IMG/VR virus record: IMGVR_UViG_3300032280_000442 | Location: 128,001 to 192,000 of that record | Length of the DNA stretch: 64,000 nt | Source of the DNA: a virus | Lineage: Duplodnaviria > Caudoviricetes | Strand: one strand, 5' to 3' | Shown: positions 9,608-25,417 of the stretch, in pieces | How positions within the stretch are numbered: the stretch's first letter is position 1 | Layout: each line of letters starts with the position of its first letter | The notes under the pieces: generated by a model | Database searches by the model: none | Told to the model about the DNA's origin: nothing | What the model saw: only the letters and a program-made list of their open reading frames with translations | Made by a program: the position numbers and the translations under genes

Positions 9608-11359
9608 ATGCCTTGTAATTCTACATATTGTATAAAAAACACCGGATTAGTTGGTGCTGATGATAACTACATAACAGGTGGGACCTATAATGGTTACACA
9701 TATTGGACGGGCCAAACAAGTGGTTGGACTATATACCACACAACGGGAACAACAAATTATTGGTGCTTATCTAATACATTAGGAGGAACTTGTTATTTAA
9801 CAGGTAAATCACCTTGTACTAGTACTTGTCCTGACTTATCAAGTATCTATGTTTTTAGTGGAGCGTGTCCAACACCAACTCCAACACCAACACAGAATTG
9901 TGAAGTATTTGATTTTACCGCAATATTTAATTGTGATTTTATACCAACACCAACTCCAACACCAAGTGCTAGTCTAACACCAACACCTACGGTAACACCT
10001 TCATCGACTAATTTTTGTTCAATTATTGGTATTAGTGCTAGTGGATATACTTACACTTCAACACCCACACCTACACCTACGGTAACACCTACAATGTATG
10101 ATGAAAACACATTAAAAAAACTACCCTTTTATTCACCATTAATATCTCGTAATTGTCCGGTATTTGGGTTTGCAAATTTTTCAGCAATAACAGGACAAAT
10201 TATTTGTCCGGGAGCTTTAAAATTCCAAGATTGTTACGATACAGACCAATTTTACTATACTAATGATGTTACAGGATTGTTACCGGGTATTTATCTTGAA
10301 CAATACGCAATCTATTCCGCTATTGTAAATAATAACGGTGTTATTTCCACAAGATGTATCTCATATTTTGGTTATGATTATGACCACGGAAATATCAACA
10401 CTATACATATTACTAACTCAAATTCATATGGTCTATCTACTCAAGGAGCTTGTATACTTTGTGAAAGCGCTATTGTACCAACCCCAACACCTACTCACAC
10501 ACCAACAATGACTAAAACACCTACTTTAACACCTACACCAACGGTAACAACTACAACAACTACAACACCAACTTACACACCAACTCAAACTCCAACAAGA
10601 ACTATTGGTGCAACACCTTCGATGACACCTACTCAAACTACAACTCCAACAGTAACCACAACACCAACTAAAACACCAACGTTAACACCAACATCATCAA
10701 ATACTAATTTACCTTGTTTTGGTTACTTATATAACTTCTACTCTATTGAAGGTACAGGTACTCAATCTATAACAAGTAGTAATAGTTGGTCAGTTCCAAG
10801 TGCTACTGATTTCAATACATTATCTGTATCTGTTGGTGGTAACGCTAACTCACTAAAATTAGTTGATGTTACAACATATTGGAATTCACTCAATACCTCC
10901 GCAACTAATTCATCCGGATTTAACGGTATAGGTGGTGGAAACAGAAATATTACTAGTGGATTTTATGGACAAAAACTATTAAGTAGTTACATATCACGAA
11001 CTTCCTATTCATTAAATGAATGTGTTTATATGTCTTTAGGCACCAATAGTAATATTATACTTATTGGAGGTGCACCATCTAAAATTAACGGTTTTGCAAT
11101 TAGATTAGTTAAAAATTCAACAACATTAACACCAGGTCAAACAGGAACATATGTTGGTAATGATGGAAAAACATATAACACAATTTGTATTGGAACTCAA
11201 GAGTGGATGTCTCAAGATTTAAGGGAAACTTTATACAGAGGTTTAACTTCAATACCAAATGTTACAGACCAAACTTCTTGGTTTAATTTAACAACCGGAG
11301 CATATTGTATTTATAACAATAATCCATATTTTGTTGGTGGTTGTATTCCACCATCTTAA
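9608..11359 (+). CDS. putative virion appendage protein: Cys-rich domains, Thr-Pro linkers, circularly permuted FISUMP (Fib_succ_major) domain
   Basis: GYLYNFY, WSVPS, SGFNGIGGG.R and GFAIRLVK, followed by DGKTYNTICIGTQEWMSQDL. Confidence 0.8.
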   Translation: MPCNSTYCIKNTGLVGADDNYITGGTYNGYTYWTGQTSGWTIYHTTGTTNYWCLSNTLGGTCYLTGKSPCTSTCPDLSSIYVFSGACPTPTPTPTQNCEVFDFTAIFNCDFIPTPTPTPSASLTPTPTVTPSSTNFCSIIGISASGYTYTSTPTPTPTVTPTMYDENTLKKLPFYSPLISRNCPVFGFANFSAITGQIICPGALKFQDCYDTDQFYYTNDVTGLLPGIYLEQYAIYSAIVNNNGVISTRCISYFGYDYDHGNINTIHITNSNSYGLSTQGACILCESAIVPTPTPTHTPTMTKTPTLTPTPTVTTTTTTTPTYTPTQTPTRTIGATPSMTPTQTTTPTVTTTPTKTPTLTPTSSNTNLPCFGYLYNFYSIEGTGTQSITSSNSWSVPSATDFNTLSVSVGGNANSLKLVDVTTYWNSLNTSATNSSGFNGIGGGNRNITSGFYGQKLLSSYISRTSYSLNECVYMSLGTNSNIILIGGAPSKINGFAIRLVKNSTTLTPGQTGTYVGNDGKTYNTICIGTQEWMSQDLRETLYRGLTSIPNVTDQTSWFNLTTGAYCIYNNNPYFVGGCIPPS

Positions 11360-11370
11360 TAAATTAATAT

Positions 11371-14259
11371 ATGACATCAATAATTTTAACTAACATATCA
11401 GGTTTAACTTACCCATATGACATTTACGTATGTGATGTCTATGGTAATAATTGTGGTTATGTTTCACAAGTTATTTCATCAATTCCACCAACAATAGAAA
11501 TTGTTTTACCACCCCCATTTAATATGGCACCTGCGGTCGGTATTAAAATTATTACATCAGATAAATGTGAGAGATTTAGAGTTATTGATTGTATTAATGT
11601 TGTACCTGTTATCGTTGATTGTTCTAGTTATATTACTACAGGAGGTACGGATATATTTAAATACAATATTGACACTAATGCGTTAACCCTTCTAACGTTC
11701 CCATCATTACCATCAATTAGTGATATCGCGAACAATAGTAATAAATTTTGGATTACAGATGTTAATAACCCTCAAGAAATAACAGAGTATTACATTAACC
11801 CAACACCATTTGTTGCAATATTTAATAGAATACTATATCCGTCGAAACCTTTATTAGGATTATGTGTTAAAGATGATAATACTTTAATTTCAACAATAAC
11901 CGGAGCAACTGTCGGAGCATCCTATATTGTTGTTGAAGTAGATTTAACAACAACAATTCCAACAATCACTAATAAATTTTCATTACCGGGAACTGGTAGG
12001 ATACTTGGTGGTGATTTATATTATTTTCCAACTACAGGTAAATTATTTGTTGCAAATATTGGTTCAGGTAATACTTACTTAACTCAATATAATTATTCTA
12101 CCGGAACATTAGAATATGATACAATACTTAACCCATCAATTACAGGTGTTTATGGGTTGTCCTCAAAAAATAGTGACCTTTATCTTTTTGAATACTCGAC
12201 AGGGAAGGTATACCGTCTTGACAATATAACAATACCAACATTTACTTTAGTTCAAACAACAATTCCGGGTGTTGGCGCCGCATCATCAGATGTTAATTGT
12301 GTTATTTTTGCAACACCAACACCAACCCCAACAAATACAAATACTCCAACACCAACTCTAACACCAAACCTTTCACCATCAATAACACCAACAAACACTA
12401 CAACCCCGACATTAACACCAACAAATACGTCAACACCTACCTTGACACCAACAAACACTACAACCCCAACATTAACACCGACTAACACCACAACTCCAAC
12501 AAATACTATAACACCAACAAGAACTGTAACACCTACTATAACACCAACAAGAACTGTAACCCCTACTGTGACACCAACCAACACCATAACTTCTACCGTA
12601 ACACCAACATTAACCGTAACACCAACAGTAACACCAACAAATACTACAACACCTACCTTGACACCAACAAATACTACAACACCTACCTTGACACCAACAT
12701 CATCATCTGTTTGTTTATCTCCGGTTATCACTAATGTTACACCAATAAGTTCTAGTTTTTTATTAGTTTATTTTACACCGTCATCTAATTGTAATTCAAT
12801 ATTTTTACAATATTCGTATGATAATATCTATTGGTATTATGGTGCCGTAACTCCAAATGATTGTACATCACCATCCAGTTTTAATTCACTAACCACAACC
12901 AATACCGTATATGTTAAAATTGGTCAAGTATGTAGTGTTGGAGGTATTAGTGTATATTCTAATATTTTATCTTACACATTCCCAACCCCTACTCCTACAC
13001 CAACAAGTACTGTCACACCAACGTTGACTCCAACAAATACGCAAACAATAACACCAACAAGAACTGTAACTCCAACAACAACACCAACGTTATCCGCAAC
13101 ACCAACGTTGACACCAACAAATACGCAAACAATAACACCAACAAGAACTGTAACTCCAACAACAACACCAACAAATACGCAAACAATAACACCAACAAGA
13201 ACTGTAACTCCAACAACAACACCAACAAATACGCAAACAATAACACCAACAAGAACTGTAACACCAACTGTAACGCCTACTATAACACCGTCAATTACAC
13301 CTACTATGACTCCGACAAACACACCAACACCGACTGAAACTCAATCAATACTTTGTGAATGTTATACATTAACAAATATTAATACGGGTATGACATTTAT
13401 TGATTCTACAACTTTCCAATATATTGATTGTAGTGGTGTCACTCAAAATATCGCAGCAACTTTTGGAGGTTCAGTAGATGTTTGTTCACAAAATGTCCCT
13501 GTAAGAATCTTAGGTGACCCAGGAAGTGTTGGTCTGTCATCATTTAATTGTTGTGCGGTACCAATTTCATTAGGATATAGAGTGACAGATGCGACGTGTG
13601 TATCTTCTGGTTGGACCTTAGTTGACCTATGTGCAAATAATTCCACAACAAGTTTATGTGATGCAACAGTGTTATATCAATCGGATATTGATGGCAATTG
13701 TACCTTTGCCTCAGCATCTGCGGGTTATTATAAAACCACTGATAACATTAGTAGAAGATATTGGGATGGTCTAACATTCCCTGCCGCTTGTTATGGATGT
13801 GGTTGTCTTGTTTCCAATACAATAATAACATTATCGGATGGGTCTACCAAATTAATACAAGATATTCAAGTGAATGATGTACTTAAATCTATTGATGTGT
13901 CAGGAATGCCTCAACCTGCCGATGAGTGGTACTCTTGGAGTAGTAATACATTGAATTACGTTGATTCAACATCGACAGTAATTAATTTTACAACATACGA
14001 ATTTGATTCAGTTGTTAACATTAATAATAGTAGATTAATTGCTACTGATTCTCATAACCACGTTGTTAAACAAAATGGTGTTTGGTACATCAGAACAACG
14101 TCTGAATTAAATATTGGCGATATATTGTTAGATATAGATAATACCGAATTTGAAATCACATCATTAGTTACAATCACAGAACCAACAACAGTTTATGATA
14201 TTGACGTTAATAATAGTAACTTATATTTTGCGAATAATGTCTTAACTCACAATAAATAA
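11371..14259 (+). CDS. putative virion appendage protein: N-module, propeller-like region, two Thr-Pro stalks, C-terminal Hint domain
   Basis: Long TP repeats; Hint blocks CLVSNT, ATDSH, VYDIDV, VLTHN followed by K and stop. Confidence 0.85.
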   Translation: MTSIILTNISGLTYPYDIYVCDVYGNNCGYVSQVISSIPPTIEIVLPPPFNMAPAVGIKIITSDKCERFRVIDCINVVPVIVDCSSYITTGGTDIFKYNIDTNALTLLTFPSLPSISDIANNSNKFWITDVNNPQEITEYYINPTPFVAIFNRILYPSKPLLGLCVKDDNTLISTITGATVGASYIVVEVDLTTTIPTITNKFSLPGTGRILGGDLYYFPTTGKLFVANIGSGNTYLTQYNYSTGTLEYDTILNPSITGVYGLSSKNSDLYLFEYSTGKVYRLDNITIPTFTLVQTTIPGVGAASSDVNCVIFATPTPTPTNTNTPTPTLTPNLSPSITPTNTTTPTLTPTNTSTPTLTPTNTTTPTLTPTNTTTPTNTITPTRTVTPTITPTRTVTPTVTPTNTITSTVTPTLTVTPTVTPTNTTTPTLTPTNTTTPTLTPTSSSVCLSPVITNVTPISSSFLLVYFTPSSNCNSIFLQYSYDNIYWYYGAVTPNDCTSPSSFNSLTTTNTVYVKIGQVCSVGGISVYSNILSYTFPTPTPTPTSTVTPTLTPTNTQTITPTRTVTPTTTPTLSATPTLTPTNTQTITPTRTVTPTTTPTNTQTITPTRTVTPTTTPTNTQTITPTRTVTPTVTPTITPSITPTMTPTNTPTPTETQSILCECYTLTNINTGMTFIDSTTFQYIDCSGVTQNIAATFGGSVDVCSQNVPVRILGDPGSVGLSSFNCCAVPISLGYRVTDATCVSSGWTLVDLCANNSTTSLCDATVLYQSDIDGNCTFASASAGYYKTTDNISRRYWDGLTFPAACYGCGCLVSNTIITLSDGSTKLIQDIQVNDVLKSIDVSGMPQPADEWYSWSSNTLNYVDSTSTVINFTTYEFDSVVNINNSRLIATDSHNHVVKQNGVWYIRTTSELNIGDILLDIDNTEFEITSLVTITEPTTVYDIDVNNSNLYFANNVLTHNK
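12310..12700 (+). repeat. Thr-Pro coding repeat array 1, includes an exact 30-bp tandem duplication at 12631-12690
   Basis: acaccaacaaatactacaacacctaccttg x2 plus many degenerate ACACCAAC units. Confidence 0.9.
12982..13335 (+). repeat. Thr-Pro coding repeat array 2 with exact 54-bp units
   Basis: PTNTQTITPTRTVTPTTT unit at 13030-13083, 13114-13167, 13168-13221 and partially 13222-13262. Confidence 0.9.
13804..14253 (+). other. Hint (bacterial intein-like) domain, C812-N961
   Basis: Cys1, block B TxxH, block F VYD, terminal His-Asn; no endonuclease insert; the +1 residue is Lys, then stop. Confidence 0.85.
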
Positions 14260-17450: not shown

Positions 17451-18740
17451 ATGAGTAAATATTATACAATAACACTATCATTTGGGACAACATCTCCAGG
17501 TCCTTACACAATTTATCTTAATCAGTCGCCACCAGCAGTAATCCCACCAAGATATCCTATAGGAGGTTTGGCGGAAAATATATCATTAGATACATTACTA
17601 GCCGGAATAACAGTTGAGGTACCGGATAACACTACATCCATTATTGTTTATAACACATATTGTGGAACTTCCTTGTTTTTAATACCACCTGTGACAATAA
17701 CATATTCCGATTTTTGTTTAACAATACGGCCAAATGGAAGACGTTCTTCAACAATTATACATTTCACTTATAGTAGTTTAGATTCAAATAATAAACCAAT
17801 TTGGTTGGGTGATGATTCACCCCAATCATCAATTAATTGGGTAAATGGTCAATGGTTATTGTCACCGAATGTTTACGATAACATAATATTTTCAACATCT
17901 CAAATAAACGCAACAACAACATACCCTACTAATTGGAATTCAGCAAATGCTAATGAAATTAACCCTATTGCAATATCATCAATTGTGATAAATGAAGGTA
18001 GTTGTGTCGAAACAAGAAAAGAATTACCTCCTGTAAGTGTTACTCAACCAACTTGTTTATGTGATGGTAGTATCATTTTTAATGTTCAATTAGATAATCC
18101 ACCATTTAATTATTCTATTGATAACGGTGTGACTTATTATTCATTCCCAATTTTTACAGACCTTTGTAGTGGAATATATAATCTATCAGTTGTTGATTCA
18201 TTAGGCGATACTTATTCAAGTTCAGTCACATTAGACAAACCAACACAAACAACCACATATAATTTATCACTTTTTACAACCAACACAACACCAGTTGTGA
18301 ATAACATATCATTAGTTAATTCTTATGAAACAACCGTTATTATAAACCCACCATTACCTGATGGAACAACAGTAACATTTGATATTATACATAACAATAG
18401 TTTCTATTCTTCACCAAATAGTGGAACATCAATATTAACAACATCAACAGTATTATCTAAAAATAGTACTACAATATCGTTAAGTAATACATCAAATTAT
18501 ACTAATGAATCTGTTAATACAATAACAAATTGTCAAAAAGAATATGTTTACCAATCAAATCTTGACGAGGTTTGGAATTCATTGACAATTACAAATAGTG
18601 ACACAATAACTATTAGTACAACATCAAGAGTTGATAAAACAACTTCAGGTGAATGTGTTGTTGGATATAGTATGGATAGTTACTCAATTAGTAATGCTGT
18701 TATCAGTGGATGCGATTGTTGCACAATAAAAATTAATTAA
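17451..18740 (+). CDS. putative virion protein with a SprB-like repeat
   Basis: N-module TSPGPYTIYL; QPTCLCDGSI...PPFNYSIDNG...FTDLCSGIYNLSVVD. Confidence 0.78.
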   Translation: MSKYYTITLSFGTTSPGPYTIYLNQSPPAVIPPRYPIGGLAENISLDTLLAGITVEVPDNTTSIIVYNTYCGTSLFLIPPVTITYSDFCLTIRPNGRRSSTIIHFTYSSLDSNNKPIWLGDDSPQSSINWVNGQWLLSPNVYDNIIFSTSQINATTTYPTNWNSANANEINPIAISSIVINEGSCVETRKELPPVSVTQPTCLCDGSIIFNVQLDNPPFNYSIDNGVTYYSFPIFTDLCSGIYNLSVVDSLGDTYSSSVTLDKPTQTTTYNLSLFTTNTTPVVNNISLVNSYETTVIINPPLPDGTTVTFDIIHNNSFYSSPNSGTSILTTSTVLSKNSTTISLSNTSNYTNESVNTITNCQKEYVYQSNLDEVWNSLTITNSDTITISTTSRVDKTTSGECVVGYSMDSYSISNAVISGCDCCTIKIN

Positions 18741-21862: not shown

Positions 21863-24800
21863 TTACACAGATGTAAATGTTGAGTAATTACTTTCAATTA
21901 CATTTCCATTTATTAATGTCGCAGTAATTCTTATTCTATAATTATGTGTCGATGGTGGACAAGGCCCGTTCCATCCATTAGGTCCATCACTACCCGGGAA
22001 AGGTCCTTCCCAATCTGTTGGTTGAATATTTGCACTAATCCAAGCACCATTAGCTACGATATTTGTTTGAAGTGGGTCAATATCTGTTACATACCAATGA
22101 ACAAAATATCCTTCAGGACTACTACCAGGTGAGTCAATATCTTCACAAAGTAATTCATAACTTAAAATATTTGTAGTATCAAAATTATTTAAAATCCAAA
22201 CTAATTCAGGACTATCGTTTGCAGATGAACATAGTACTAAATTTTTATAATTAGAAGGAATTAAACCTCCTTCTGTATAAGATGTACTATATAACGTCAT
22301 TGATGGAATACCTTTCTTACAAGTTGAGAAAATATCGATACTACATCCATTAGGAAACTCTTTATTACATTCAGTTTTAAAAGTATACACAATATTACCA
22401 CTACTTGTTTCTGAATATGTCACATATCCTGAAACATTTAACGTAACCGTTGTATCACCATTAGTCGGTGGATATAATATTACTTTAATAATATCACCAC
22501 TATTTGTTGGTAAAGTACCTACAAATATGTTAACATCAAAATTAGGACCAAACGAATAAACAAGACTTGTAACATTATTTGGTGTTGTAACATATATCTC
22601 ACCAGTAACATCAGCCGCTTTACAATCGCTCCAATTTCTTAAATTTGTTGGACAAGCGCCCTCAAGAGGTAGAAAATCAAGAGCTTTTTTACAATCTTCA
22701 CAAGGTGTTCTACTTGGGATATTAGGGAATAATGTCACACCACCCGTAAAGTAATTATTAGGATATGTTACACCAAACCATTGATTTTGTAATTGTTGTA
22801 AATTACTACCAATAGCCATTAATTGCCAACAAACTCTACTAGGTATGTGTAATACAACATCATTAATTAGATTACCAGGAACTGCCGGAACCGGTTGAAT
22901 AACCACAGTTGTTTCAGACGGACGACGAGTTCCACAAATCATATACACGTAATACATAGTTTTTGATGTTGTAGATGGAGTCATTGTTGGTGTATGAGTC
23001 GGTGTTACCGTTGGTGTTGTTGTCATTGTTGGTGTTTTTGTTACTGTTTGTGTTGGTGTTTTTGTTACTGTCGGTGTCGGTGTTTTTGTTACTGTCGGTG
23101 TTGGAGTTTGAGTAGGTGTTACAGGAGGTGTCGTACCAACAGTTGCTGTTGGACTTGGCGTAAGTGTCGGTGTCGCAGTTCTTGTTGGTGTTAGAGTCGG
23201 AGTTTTAGTCATTGTAACAGTAGGTGTTGGTGTATATGTAGGTGTCGGTGTTGGAGTTGGTTTAGGACAAACACAATTAATACCATAATCTATATACATT
23301 TCTACTAAAACATCTGAATTCTGTAACGATGTTGGGTCGCAATTTGTTGTAACAGTTATACTATTATTAAAAGCGTCAATAGTTACATTACCAGGTCCAA
23401 TTTGAGGACACGATTCTATCAATGAAATAACCGTTGAAAACCATAATCCGTCTGTAGGATAATCAGTTAATGATGTACTATTATAAAATATTGTAGAGTT
23501 AACACAAGCCCCAACTGTTACTTGTGCAGTAAATGTCGCTGCAGTTAATTCACAATTATAATAACCTGAGGTTATTAACGCTTGAGAAATTAATTCGTTA
23601 TATCCTTCGTAAAAATATTGTTTTGGATTAGATTCTATAATAATACTATCACTTAATTTTCCATTACAAACATTATAATAACCAGTAGAACTAAATTCAG
23701 TATAACCTCTAATAGGTCTTAATTTTGTTTTAGAACAACCAGCACTATCAACAATTCTAACTGAATAATCACCTGCAGGTAAATTAGGTATTGTCATAAC
23801 TGATGTCCCAACTGTACCCCCATTAAAATATAATGTAAATGGCGGAGTTCCATTTGTAATATAAGCAGTAATTAAACCGTCATTATTATATGAATCATCC
23901 CCTAATAAATTAAAATCAATTGTATTTGATTGGTCAATTGTAAATGGTTGTGTTTGTTTACAAAATAATGAATCTGTAACAATTGCAAGATAATTTCCAC
24001 TAACTAAATTATTAAACGTATACGAAGTTAATGATACGTTATAAATAGATTGTCCATCAATCTGATATATATACGGTGGAGTACCTCCACTAGTTATAAA
24101 TAAAGTAACTGAACCATTATCACCATTACAAGTCGTTCCGGTGGTTGAAGTTCCCAAATCAAACGTATTAACGTTATTAATTGTATACGCACTTGTAAAT
24201 GAACAAGCCCCATTATCTGTAATATCTAAAGTATAATTTCCCGAAGAAAGATTATTAAATATCCAACTTGATTCATAAACAGTATTTGAATTTTGATTAC
24301 CTAATGAGTCAGTTAAAGTAAATGTATACGGAGAAACACCCCCAAAAACAACAATAGGACCTATTACTCCCGATGAATCATTACAAGTTGAATTTGTGAT
24401 GTCTACAGAAATTATTGACATCCCTCTTGGTGTTAATAAACTTGTACTTGTTGTAAAAGTACATAAACCAGCATCAACTACTTGAATTGTGAAACCTCCC
24501 GGTCCTAATCCTGTAAAAACAACTGTTCTATCAAACGTAATGTCCGTAACACCATTTGAACCTAAATAATAAAATGGTGCAGTACCTCCAGTTATAATAA
24601 TTTCAATTTCACCATCTGAAGTAAAACAAGTTGGTTGTGTTAAATAAATAGCACCTAACCCCACAGGTGGTATAGAAAAGATAACTGTAGTATTCGATAT
24701 TGAACAATAATTACTATCAGTTACGGTAACTGTATAAGTTCCTTCTGTTAATCCTGTAATACTATCATTTGTACTTCCGTTAGACCACAAATAAGTGTAA

Positions 24801-25417
24801 GGTGCAGTACCTGTTAATCCTGTTATAAATATTTTTCCTGAATTAACCCCACATCCAGCATCATCAACAGTATATAAACCAAAACTTAAGTTTGAGGAAC
24901 TTTTAACTATTACACTCTCAGATTTTCCTGTACATCCACCACCATCGTTAGCGATAACATAATAAGTCCCAACTGATAGGTTATCAAAAACATACGAATT
25001 ATTTGCAGGATAAAATGTTGATATTAAACCCGTAATTTCACTATATAACGAAAACACCGCACTTCCATAAAAATTAGTAGTTGATGCCGTTAAAGAACCA
25101 TTATTGGAATCACAAATAGTATTATTAACATCTAATATTGAAACACAGGTTCCACTAGATATATAAATGTTTACAGGTAGAACAGTATTACCCGAAATAC
25201 AACTATCAATAATGTTAAATGAATAGGTATTCGCAGATAAATTTGTTCTAGTGTATGCACTAACGCCAGCACCTAAGGCTGTTGTTCCTGTGATTGGGGA
25301 TAACCATTGGATGGTATAATCAGGAGCTTCACCAAAAATATTAATGGTAAATGAACCTAAGTTAAGATTAGTACAATCCCCTGTTATACTAGCGTTATAT
25401 GATAAAAGACAAGACAT
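21863..25417 (-). CDS. putative virion appendage protein: about 7 SprB-like repeats, Thr-Pro stalk, C-terminal YbhB/YbcL (PEBP) domain
   Basis: Repeats C...GS/GT.PY.Y...L..G.Y...V.D..C; PEBP motifs SPELVW, EDIDSP, FVHW, GPCPP..HNY. Confidence 0.85.

Follow-up and report, generated by a model that had tools for sequence, protein, structure and literature searches.

What does a Hint domain do at the very end of a phage appendage protein, where a single lysine follows it before the stop codon? The question is raised by the 962-residue protein P0001, encoded in a 64,000-nucleotide stretch (positions 128,001 to 192,000, hereafter the window) of the IMG/VR virus record IMGVR_UViG_3300032280_000442. 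On the one hand, a first-pass annotation of this DNA had proposed that the domain is a ligation device on a stalked virion protein, leaving an activated glycine (Gly811) at the tip of a long stalk; on the other hand, it had named a self-removing folding or assembly chaperone as the alternative. Our results favour self-removal, with the chaperone role as one candidate benefit: the Hint, of the A-type bacterial intein-like (BIL) kind, is probably a C-terminal cap that removes itself from P0001, a modular appendage protein (fibre or adhesin) of the phage.

The last 151 residues of P0001 are a complete Hint domain plus a single Lys. The protein ends in A806-C-Y-G-C-G811 / C812-LVSNTIITLSDG ... LIAT892-D-S-H895-N-H897 ... 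VYDIDV ... FANNVLT-H960-N961-K962-stop, the slash marking the junction between the upstream N-extein and the Hint. The domain, about 150 residues long and without an endonuclease insert, carries the catalytic Cys1, the Thr-x-x-His (TxxH) motif and the terminal His-Asn pair (HN), and the residue at +1 is Lys, not Cys, Ser or Thr. Translation, the AlphaFold2 (AF2) fold and alignment bear out the first-pass annotation on each of these points, and its placement of the Hint with a one-residue Lys C-extein at 13804-14259 is exact, with the Hint running to 14253 and followed by Lys962 and the stop. The AF2 model of residues 672-962 has a predicted local distance difference test (pLDDT) value of 90.4. 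VIA-align superimposes it on Tetrahymena BIL2 (PDB 6TMM; Z 19.3, 1.9 Å over 139 residues), on the C. thermocellum A-type BIL 2LWY (Z 18.7, root-mean-square deviation 1.8 Å over 132 residues), on the gp41-1 and NpuDnaB inteins (Z 18) and on the Hedgehog domain 1AT0 (Z 17.4), with Z values of 13-19 across 26 intein, BIL and Hog representatives. Foldseek, which like VIA-align speaks to the fold only, returned 47 PDB matches at E<=1e-3, every one a Hint domain (BIL2 at E 2e-9).

Sequence comparison places the domain within the Hint world more closely, and its matches, like those of the fold, lie well outside what chance would give. With the single sequence as query, phmmer found Tetrahymena BIL2 in the PDB at E 4e-8; a profile of 125 family members ranked BIL2 (1e-21) ahead of 2LWY (3e-12) and then the mini-inteins (best intein 2.7e-9). 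By this comparison of a family profile with PDB sequences, which is not a score against a curated BIL model, the family is nearer to the reference BILs than to inteins. Pfam gave matches below cut-off only (Intein_splicing, 28.7 bits against 35.8; PT-HINT, PF07591, 16 bits against 27.7; Hint, 14.9 bits; and also Hom_end_hint), and an NCBIfam search of the protein gave no match. The horseshoe-like all-beta fold, the block A Cys1 and the block B Thr-x-x-His are those of the HINT superfamily, and the terminal His-Asn, the non-nucleophilic +1 residue, the mini size, the variable host proteins and the closer sequence relationship are those of A-type BILs. The domain is not a canonical class 1 intein, in that the protein stops at its +1 residue, a Lys; it is not a Hedgehog Hog domain, HN being present with one residue after it; and it is not a Pretoxin-HINT (PF07591), as it scores below the gathering cut-off and has no domain downstream. 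Homology to Peptidase S74 (PF13884) is likewise not indicated, Pfam giving no match to it. No second Hint was found in the 308,574-bp genome.

The abrupt end of the gene might be suspected of being an accident, and the first-pass annotation had itself raised a recent truncation or sequencing error as an objection. The objection fails, since THNK-stop is found in 25 of 30 close relatives, the other five having tails of about 8-11 residues. Recent truncation, sequencing error and read-through are ruled out by these relatives, by a double TAA and by the next open reading frame (ORF), which lies on the opposite strand; stop-codon recoding is disfavoured by the long ORFs across the window.

An exhaustive phmmer search over 1.84 billion cluster representatives gave 1,311 clusters at E<=1e-3 (325 at E<=1e-10). 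The best 150 of these 1,311 contain 160 Hint domains, on which the domain statistics rest. The HN end is present in 157 of the 160 domains, and the C-terminal tail is of ten residues or fewer in 102. Lys occupies +1 in 53 domains and +2 in a further 77, that is, one of the two positions in 130 of the 160 (81%); neither Cys nor Thr is found at +1 in any. In the family alignment Cys812 is conserved in 124 of 125 members, and Thr/Ser892, His895, His960 and Asn961 are each conserved in all 125. Most members have a Gly-rich flexible linker ahead of Cys1, and the N-exteins include collagen-like repeats, BACON, fn3, the proprotein-convertase P-domain, Laminin_G_3 and DUF5977. By these comparisons the family is large, lies below the Pfam and NCBIfam thresholds and caps phage fibre and surface proteins.

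The Lys at +1 or +2 is retained whether the C-extein is one residue, a Cys-rich peptide of 30-50 residues or a further Hint in a tandem array, and three related terminal Hints that lack His-Asn lack the Lys as well. Because it is kept across C-extein types and absent where HN is lost, this small sample suggests that the Lys is tied to the C-terminal junction and not to the fold. Two of these C-extein types deserve a description of their own. In P0022, P0038, P0040, P0045, P0046, P0061 and P0080 the HN-K or HN-xK end runs on without a stop into the 30-50-residue peptide, which has six to eight Cys, and this subfamily looks like a Hint-released disulfide-rich peptide. Tandem arrays, joined by HN-K-G-G-G and then the Cys of the following copy, occur in P0035 (9 matched stretches), P0097 (7), P0057 (5), P0072, P0095 and P0087; in some first copies Cys1, His-Asn and Lys are all gone.

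Closer to P0001, 30 related cluster representatives of 288-1167 residues, from independent metagenomes, have about the last 300 residues in common. Gly at -1 is invariant among them; with Cys812 conserved as described above, the Gly-Cys junction on which the first-pass annotation had built its proposal holds up in the close family. Identity to the window is 74-96% in the Hint against 26-70% in the adjoining Cys-rich tip, with one near-identical exception. The ratio of nonsynonymous to synonymous substitution rates (dN/dS; Nei-Gojobori, 27 distinct relatives) in the Hint is 0.08-0.20 at dS 0.17-1.8; the Hint is under purifying selection, and because of these ratios it is the activity of the protein that is selected, not merely a DNA segment that spreads. 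Apparent second Hint matches in some loci of this set were insignificant.

The borders of the conserved part are sharp at the DNA level. In the two syntenic loci L004 and L007, similarity to the window is gone by about 13384 or earlier and comes back at 13752/13753, 17 codons before Cys812, from where it runs on through the Hint into the downstream genes. In L006, a non-syntenic locus that encodes a 1167-residue Laminin_G_3 protein, a similarity of 88% in the Hint region spans exactly 13753-14259, with only weak matches outside it, in repetitive Pro/Thr-linker DNA. Because of these borders, the Hint and a short adapter form a discrete recombination cassette. Fibres capped by S74 are known to show such a pattern, a variable receptor-type domain beside a conserved self-cleaving end.

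The Hint is optional at the P0001 locus. Searching viral contigs with residues 1-315 gave 56 loci, with no gene ending in a Hint among them. Four loci (L013, L014, L017 and L028) are syntenic with the window, sharing the primase-side genes, the upstream gene region and the small minus-strand downstream ORF, and in L013, L017 and L028 also the SprB-repeat gene downstream; their orthologue of P0001 has the shared N-terminal module or modules, another tip and no Hint, so that tips have clearly been swapped at this appendage locus. The tips of L014 and L028 are DUF285 (BspA-like) repeats. The Cys-rich tip itself also occurs without the domain: a profile of it found 20 clusters, 18 with a Hint and two without (P0182, 364 residues; P0181, 375 residues). 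The contig of P0182 holds its ORF complete, closed by TAG and separated by an AT-rich spacer from a T4-type portal gene downstream. The end of P0182 is WSGSCISC-stop (that of P0181 likewise SCISC-stop), which aligns to WGGACTLC of P0170, where the next residues are TG and then the Cys of the Hint; both Hint-less proteins thus end at CxxC, two residues before the aligned Hint start. Proteins ending at the N-extein boundary exist naturally, and such a Hint-free end would be that of a functional protein, because the complete ORF of P0182 ends at CxxC.

Other carriers connect the family to phage fibres. Among cultured phages (tblastn), the matches are Alexandravirus jumbo phages of Erwinia and Dickeya. 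Gp108 of Dickeya phage AD1 (Alexandravirus) is a collagen-like protein of 479 residues, annotated as a virion structural protein and located among tail-fibre genes, with a C-terminal Hint ending VLAHN/TDIVAKAEKK; phage NCTB encodes, near tail-fibre genes, a 1304-residue 'large intein domain protein' ending VLVHN/APVDQKH. In a 373-kb phage, P0179 (399 residues, Hint 74% identical to that of the window) lies directly after Baseplate_J_C, 176-residue and 1586-residue proteins. When one genome of each prokaryote species was scanned for the motif, 38 loci were found, 29 of them in Flavobacterium. The Flavobacterium proteins have 286-425 residues, in which an N-part leads through a poly-Gly linker into the Hint, followed by THN[YIFV]K and a last 1-7 residues. 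In two Flavobacterium loci examined, genes for an S74-capped tail fibre, Phage_fiber_rpt, DUF5977 and DUF285 adjoin the Hint-capped genes. The true inteins found by the same scan (L159-L165) have HN followed by C or S, and their ORF continues for about 250-490 residues past HN. Several chromosomes of Flavobacterium have two Hint-capped genes 7-11 kb apart (L131/L143 in F. olei, L133/L145 in F. collinsii, L134/L147 and L139/L154), and directly upstream of L143 is a gene for a 751-residue tail fibre with a Peptidase_S74 chaperone, which sets the two kinds of cap side by side. A distant member, L168 (P0091, 1439 residues), is found outside any obvious phage setting, beside genes for a secretin, a T2SSE ATPase, a pilin-like protein and a TraG-like coupling protein; the family therefore extends beyond phage fibres.

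The chemistry of such domains is known in outline. Hints with Cys1 and TxxH form a thioester at the -1 residue, and a terminal His-Asn cleaves through a succinimide. With A-type BILs, cleavage occurs at both the N- and the C-terminal side and, occasionally, the flanks are ligated through the freed amine of the C-flank (Amitai 2003, Dassa 2004 in PMC7664689, PMC7765530). Tetrahymena BIL2 is reported by its depositors to couple the ubiquitin-like domain ahead of it, by an isopeptide bond, to lysines in other proteins, with no ATP and no E1/E2 (PMC8616854). For a Hint with invariant catalytic residues a Gly811 thioester is the expected first step: in the folded protein, Cys812 would attack the Gly811 carbonyl in an N-S acyl shift assisted by Thr892 and His895. 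Asn961, helped by His960, would then cyclise and free Lys962, and the thioester would be resolved in cis by an amine of Lys962 or by water. The alpha-amine would follow the BIL route of Dassa 2004, and the epsilon-amine, acting before or after Asn cyclisation, a BIL2-like isopeptide route. The outcome would be a mature protein of 811-812 residues that ends at its Cys-rich tip, with the 150-residue Hint discarded.

The fold, the catalytic residues, the terminal position throughout the family, the selection, the modularity and the optional presence of the Hint are shown here. We infer, then, that the Hint cleaves, that its thioester is resolved and that the cap brings a benefit, which would make it a Hint-fold analogue of the S74 intramolecular chaperone that ends tail fibres and spikes: a transient maturation module travelling with exchangeable tip cassettes, conserved while the tip diversifies. 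As candidate benefits, the cap may protect the Cys-rich tip or help it fold while in the cytoplasm, may time assembly, or may be a conserved 3' recombination anchor that needs to be removed from the protein. Several points weigh against such a cap. Cleavage is a prediction for every family member. The location of P0001 in the virion is deduced from its neighbours, and no peptide coverage was found behind the annotation of gp108 as a virion structural protein, the AD1 paper being one without proteomics. Simple N-cleavage needs neither His-Asn nor Lys, and their explanation by C-cleavage or cis-ligation is a conjecture. The tip can exist without the Hint, and therefore the benefit of the cap is undefined. 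Finally, the Pro/Thr linkers and the beta-propeller suggest a monomeric beads-on-a-string architecture rather than a trimeric fibre, and therefore the analogy to trimerisation chaperones is weakened.

Could the Gly811 thioester instead be meant for an outside partner? Along the lines of the first-pass annotation's main idea, the thioester would be kept latent on the particle or in the infected cell until an external nucleophile (a lysine on a different virion protein, an amine on the host surface, or a small molecule with an amine or thiol) resolved it, coupling the fibre tip covalently without E1/E2. There is a precedent, BIL2 being both the nearest solved relative by sequence and fold and a domain reported to conjugate to lysines of other proteins; the -1 Gly, invariant in the close family, is as in ubiquitin, and strong purifying selection fits an active chemistry. 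Self-removal is nevertheless preferred, and external ligation held to be unlikely, because the Hint is dispensable at the orthologous locus, the Hint-less tips end at the junction, and the HN-Lys end suggests a reaction in cis. The flanking genes are alike with and without the Hint, so that no Hint-specific partner gene is visible nearby, and the invariant HN and the conserved cis Lys would be needless for ligation in trans; Hedgehog-type Hints, which do use an external nucleophile, are without HN. The invariant His-Asn and the Lys at +1/+2 in 81% suggest that C-cleavage and the protein's own Lys take part, and not an outside amine. It is also conceivable that this Lys is a built-in nucleophile, performing a lysine-dependent splicing that leaves an isopeptide-linked Lys or short tail on the fibre C-terminus, while a better-placed amine, if offered, could receive the fibre tip on another protein or on the host surface; we regard this as improbable. 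If true, it would be a phage counterpart of BIL2 conjugation free of E1/E2, from which C-terminal ligation tags that activate themselves could be drawn as they occur in nature.

Self-excision might also bring the phage no benefit, the Hint being an intein-like passenger on tip cassettes that stays active because an inactive copy would burden the tip with a bulky domain. Sporadic, cassette-like presence on unrelated N-exteins (collagen, BACON, fn3, Laminin_G_3, DUF5977 and P-domain), the sharp DNA borders and the Hint-less alleles agree with this, and purifying selection of the kind observed would be expected of an element forced to keep excising, as is generally assumed for mini-inteins. We consider it quite unlikely: a domain of about 150 residues has no homing endonuclease or other means of spread, 18 of the 20 tip-domain clusters retain it, and the family is very large and consistently terminal. 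The extreme C-terminal site behind a Gly linker, with a conserved Lys, resembles a designed module and not a random invasion. It is very improbable that there is no cleavage at all, the Hint being retained after maturation as an end domain for structure or binding, or that it trims only the C-terminal Lys. Some Hint-fold domains are indeed non-catalytic, and Foldseek and VIA report the fold alone; yet the residues for both cleavages are invariant across the family, the degenerate copies of the tandem arrays show that loss takes Cys1, HN and Lys together, and the natural Hint-less forms end at the junction.

The features of the gene that bears the putative self-removing cap are collected in Table 1. 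Its N-terminal beta module is the sole part kept in every allele at the locus, and loci L017-L065 align to P0001 only over residues 1-74/80. The same module is also found as separate ORFs of about 68-100 residues in dozens of related viral contigs (L018-L020, L032-L065). It may be an attachment module, perhaps the part with which a set of exchangeable appendage pieces is fixed to the virion. For the propeller region the best Foldseek matches are YWTD/Kelch propellers (E 1e-9 to 1e-8, with a template modelling score of only 0.4-0.5), and the structure rows of the Atlas are SGL/NHL-type propellers. The middle domain gave no match in a family search and is kept at 85-90% in P0004, P0160, P0161 and P0168. 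The tip domain has seven Cys that are invariant or nearly so, an RRYWDG motif and a terminal C807-x-x-C810-G811; within the two-domain AF2 model no PDB match to the tip exceeded Z 3.1, which is not evidence for a new fold, and an Atlas feature search gave no usable match. The two repeat linkers, which lie between the folded domains, bear out the stalk of the 'stalked virion protein' in the first-pass annotation, and the virion part of that name is deduced from context.

Table 1. Coordinates of the P0001 gene and its parts in the window.
Feature	Residues	Position	Strand	Basis
P0001, whole modular appendage gene, Hint at C-terminus	962 residues in all	11371..14259	+	translation
Small N-terminal beta module	1-74	11371..11592	+	AF2 model; common to all alleles of the locus
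Six-bladed beta-propeller-like domain	~85-305	11623..12285	+	AF2, pLDDT 81
Pro/Thr-rich tandem-repeat linker 1 ('stalk')	~311-445	12301..12705	+	sequence
Middle beta-rich domain	~446-560	12706..13050	+	sequence
Pro/Thr-rich tandem-repeat linker 2	~561-671	13051..13383	+	sequence
Hypervariable Cys-rich tip domain, N-extein end	672-811	13384..13803	+	alignment of relatives
Conserved DNA cassette: last 17 tip codons, Hint, Lys and stop		13753..14259	+	DNA comparison
A-type BIL-like Hint, predicted autoprocessing	812-961	13804..14253	+	sequence and AF2 model
Hint catalytic codons	Cys812; Thr892; His895; His960; Asn961	13804-13806; 14044-14046; 14053-14055; 14248-14250; 14251-14253	+	
One-residue C-extein, codon AAA	Lys962	14254-14256	+	
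TAA TAA, of which the first is the gene's stop		to 14262; stop 14257-14259	+	

Among the close relatives the N-extein closes with a CxxC motif, one or two residues ahead of Cys1, in P0001 as C807-Y-G-C810-G811-C812 (13789-13806); the wider family has poly-Gly in place of CxxC before Cys1. Redox traps that delay cleavage have been shown for some engineered and natural inteins, and a disulfide from the CxxC to Cys1 could act as such a trap, which is pure speculation.

The source of the window is an uncultured jumbo tailed phage, because of the genome size and the encoded proteins: the 308,574-bp IMG/VR record has direct terminal repeats and is estimated complete, and the window (GC about 31%) encodes a baseplate wedge protein, a ribonucleotide reductase, a DnaB-type helicase, a primase and an SbcC-like protein. 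P0001 has SprB, Fib_succ_major and PT-rich proteins as neighbours, with the baseplate wedge about 24 kb off. The large neighbours at 9608-11359 (+) and 21863-25417 (-) have Fib_succ_major, SprB repeats, PEGA, a PEBP domain and Pro/Thr linkers. In a blastp comparison among the window genes P0001 shares nothing at E<=1e-4, the sole pair being 17451-18740 with 21863-25417, and a scan for terminators 3' of the gene (11371-14259) found none. Syntenic orthologues within the same set of flanking genes are P0160 on a 95-kb contig and another on L004. A Flavobacterium-like host (Bacteroidota) is a reasonable guess because of the Flavobacterium carriers, the SprB, Fib_succ_major, BACON and DUF285 domains and the low GC.

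Neither the Hint fold nor the thioester chemistry nor the BIL class is new. In the literature that was searched, we came upon no account of phage fibres with a Hint or BIL at the C-terminus, nor did we find described the terminal site on phage appendages, the size of the family, its escape from Pfam and NCBIfam, the Lys at +1/+2 or the cassette behaviour. If the caps self-cleave, phages would have, besides S74, a second and chemically distinct self-cleaving end module for the maturation of fibres and adhesins, and, with at least 1,311 clusters uncalled by Pfam/NCBIfam, the annotated lengths of many receptor-binding proteins would be about 150 residues too long. The conserved Hint beside a hypervariable tip marks a recombination boundary, which is useful for reading or engineering the host-range cassettes of laboratory phages, and a naturally terminal Hint with Gly at -1 and Lys after Asn offers a ready system to test lysine-mediated splicing and isopeptide formation.

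Among known systems, the P0001 Hint shares with A-type BILs a domain of about 140-150 residues with no endonuclease, Cys1, TxxH, His-Asn, a non-nucleophilic +1 residue and variable surface-type hosts. The P0001 family differs from them in lying at the extreme C-terminus, with a C-extein of one residue in P0001 and 1-10 residues across the family, in having Lys at +1/+2 in 81%, and in its hosts, which are phage appendage proteins. BIL2 (PDB 6TMM, 6Y75) is the best solved match by sequence and fold, and has Gly at -1 as does P0001. After GG it starts with C/A-FVSNTQITMAD, where P0001 has, after CG, CLVSNTIITLSD; it ends in FFANGVLAHN, where P0001 has YFANNVLTHN. The PDB alignments of BIL2 stop at His because of its N143A mutation. 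BIL2 lies between two ubiquitin-like domains of a eukaryotic polyprotein and its nucleophilic Lys is in a folded C-extein or in other proteins, whereas the N-extein of P0001 is a Cys-rich fibre tip and its C-extein one Lys. Pretoxin-HINT (PF07591), from polymorphic toxins, and Hog share the Hint fold and free an adjoining domain by autoproteolysis, as is proposed for P0001. PT-HINT precedes a C-terminal toxin, which P0001 does not have; Hog has no His-Asn end and carries a sterol-recruiting extension, whereas P0001 stops one residue after Asn. The S74 chaperone (PF13884, endosialidase-type) is likewise a conserved self-cleaving C-terminal domain after a variable receptor-binding part, cleavage in P0001 being predicted. 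S74 domains trimerise, and nothing suggests trimerisation of the P0001 Hint. S74 uses a Ser-Lys dyad protease, whereas the P0001 Hint would use a Cys thioester and Asn cyclisation; the folds are unrelated, and the resemblance is one of function and position only.

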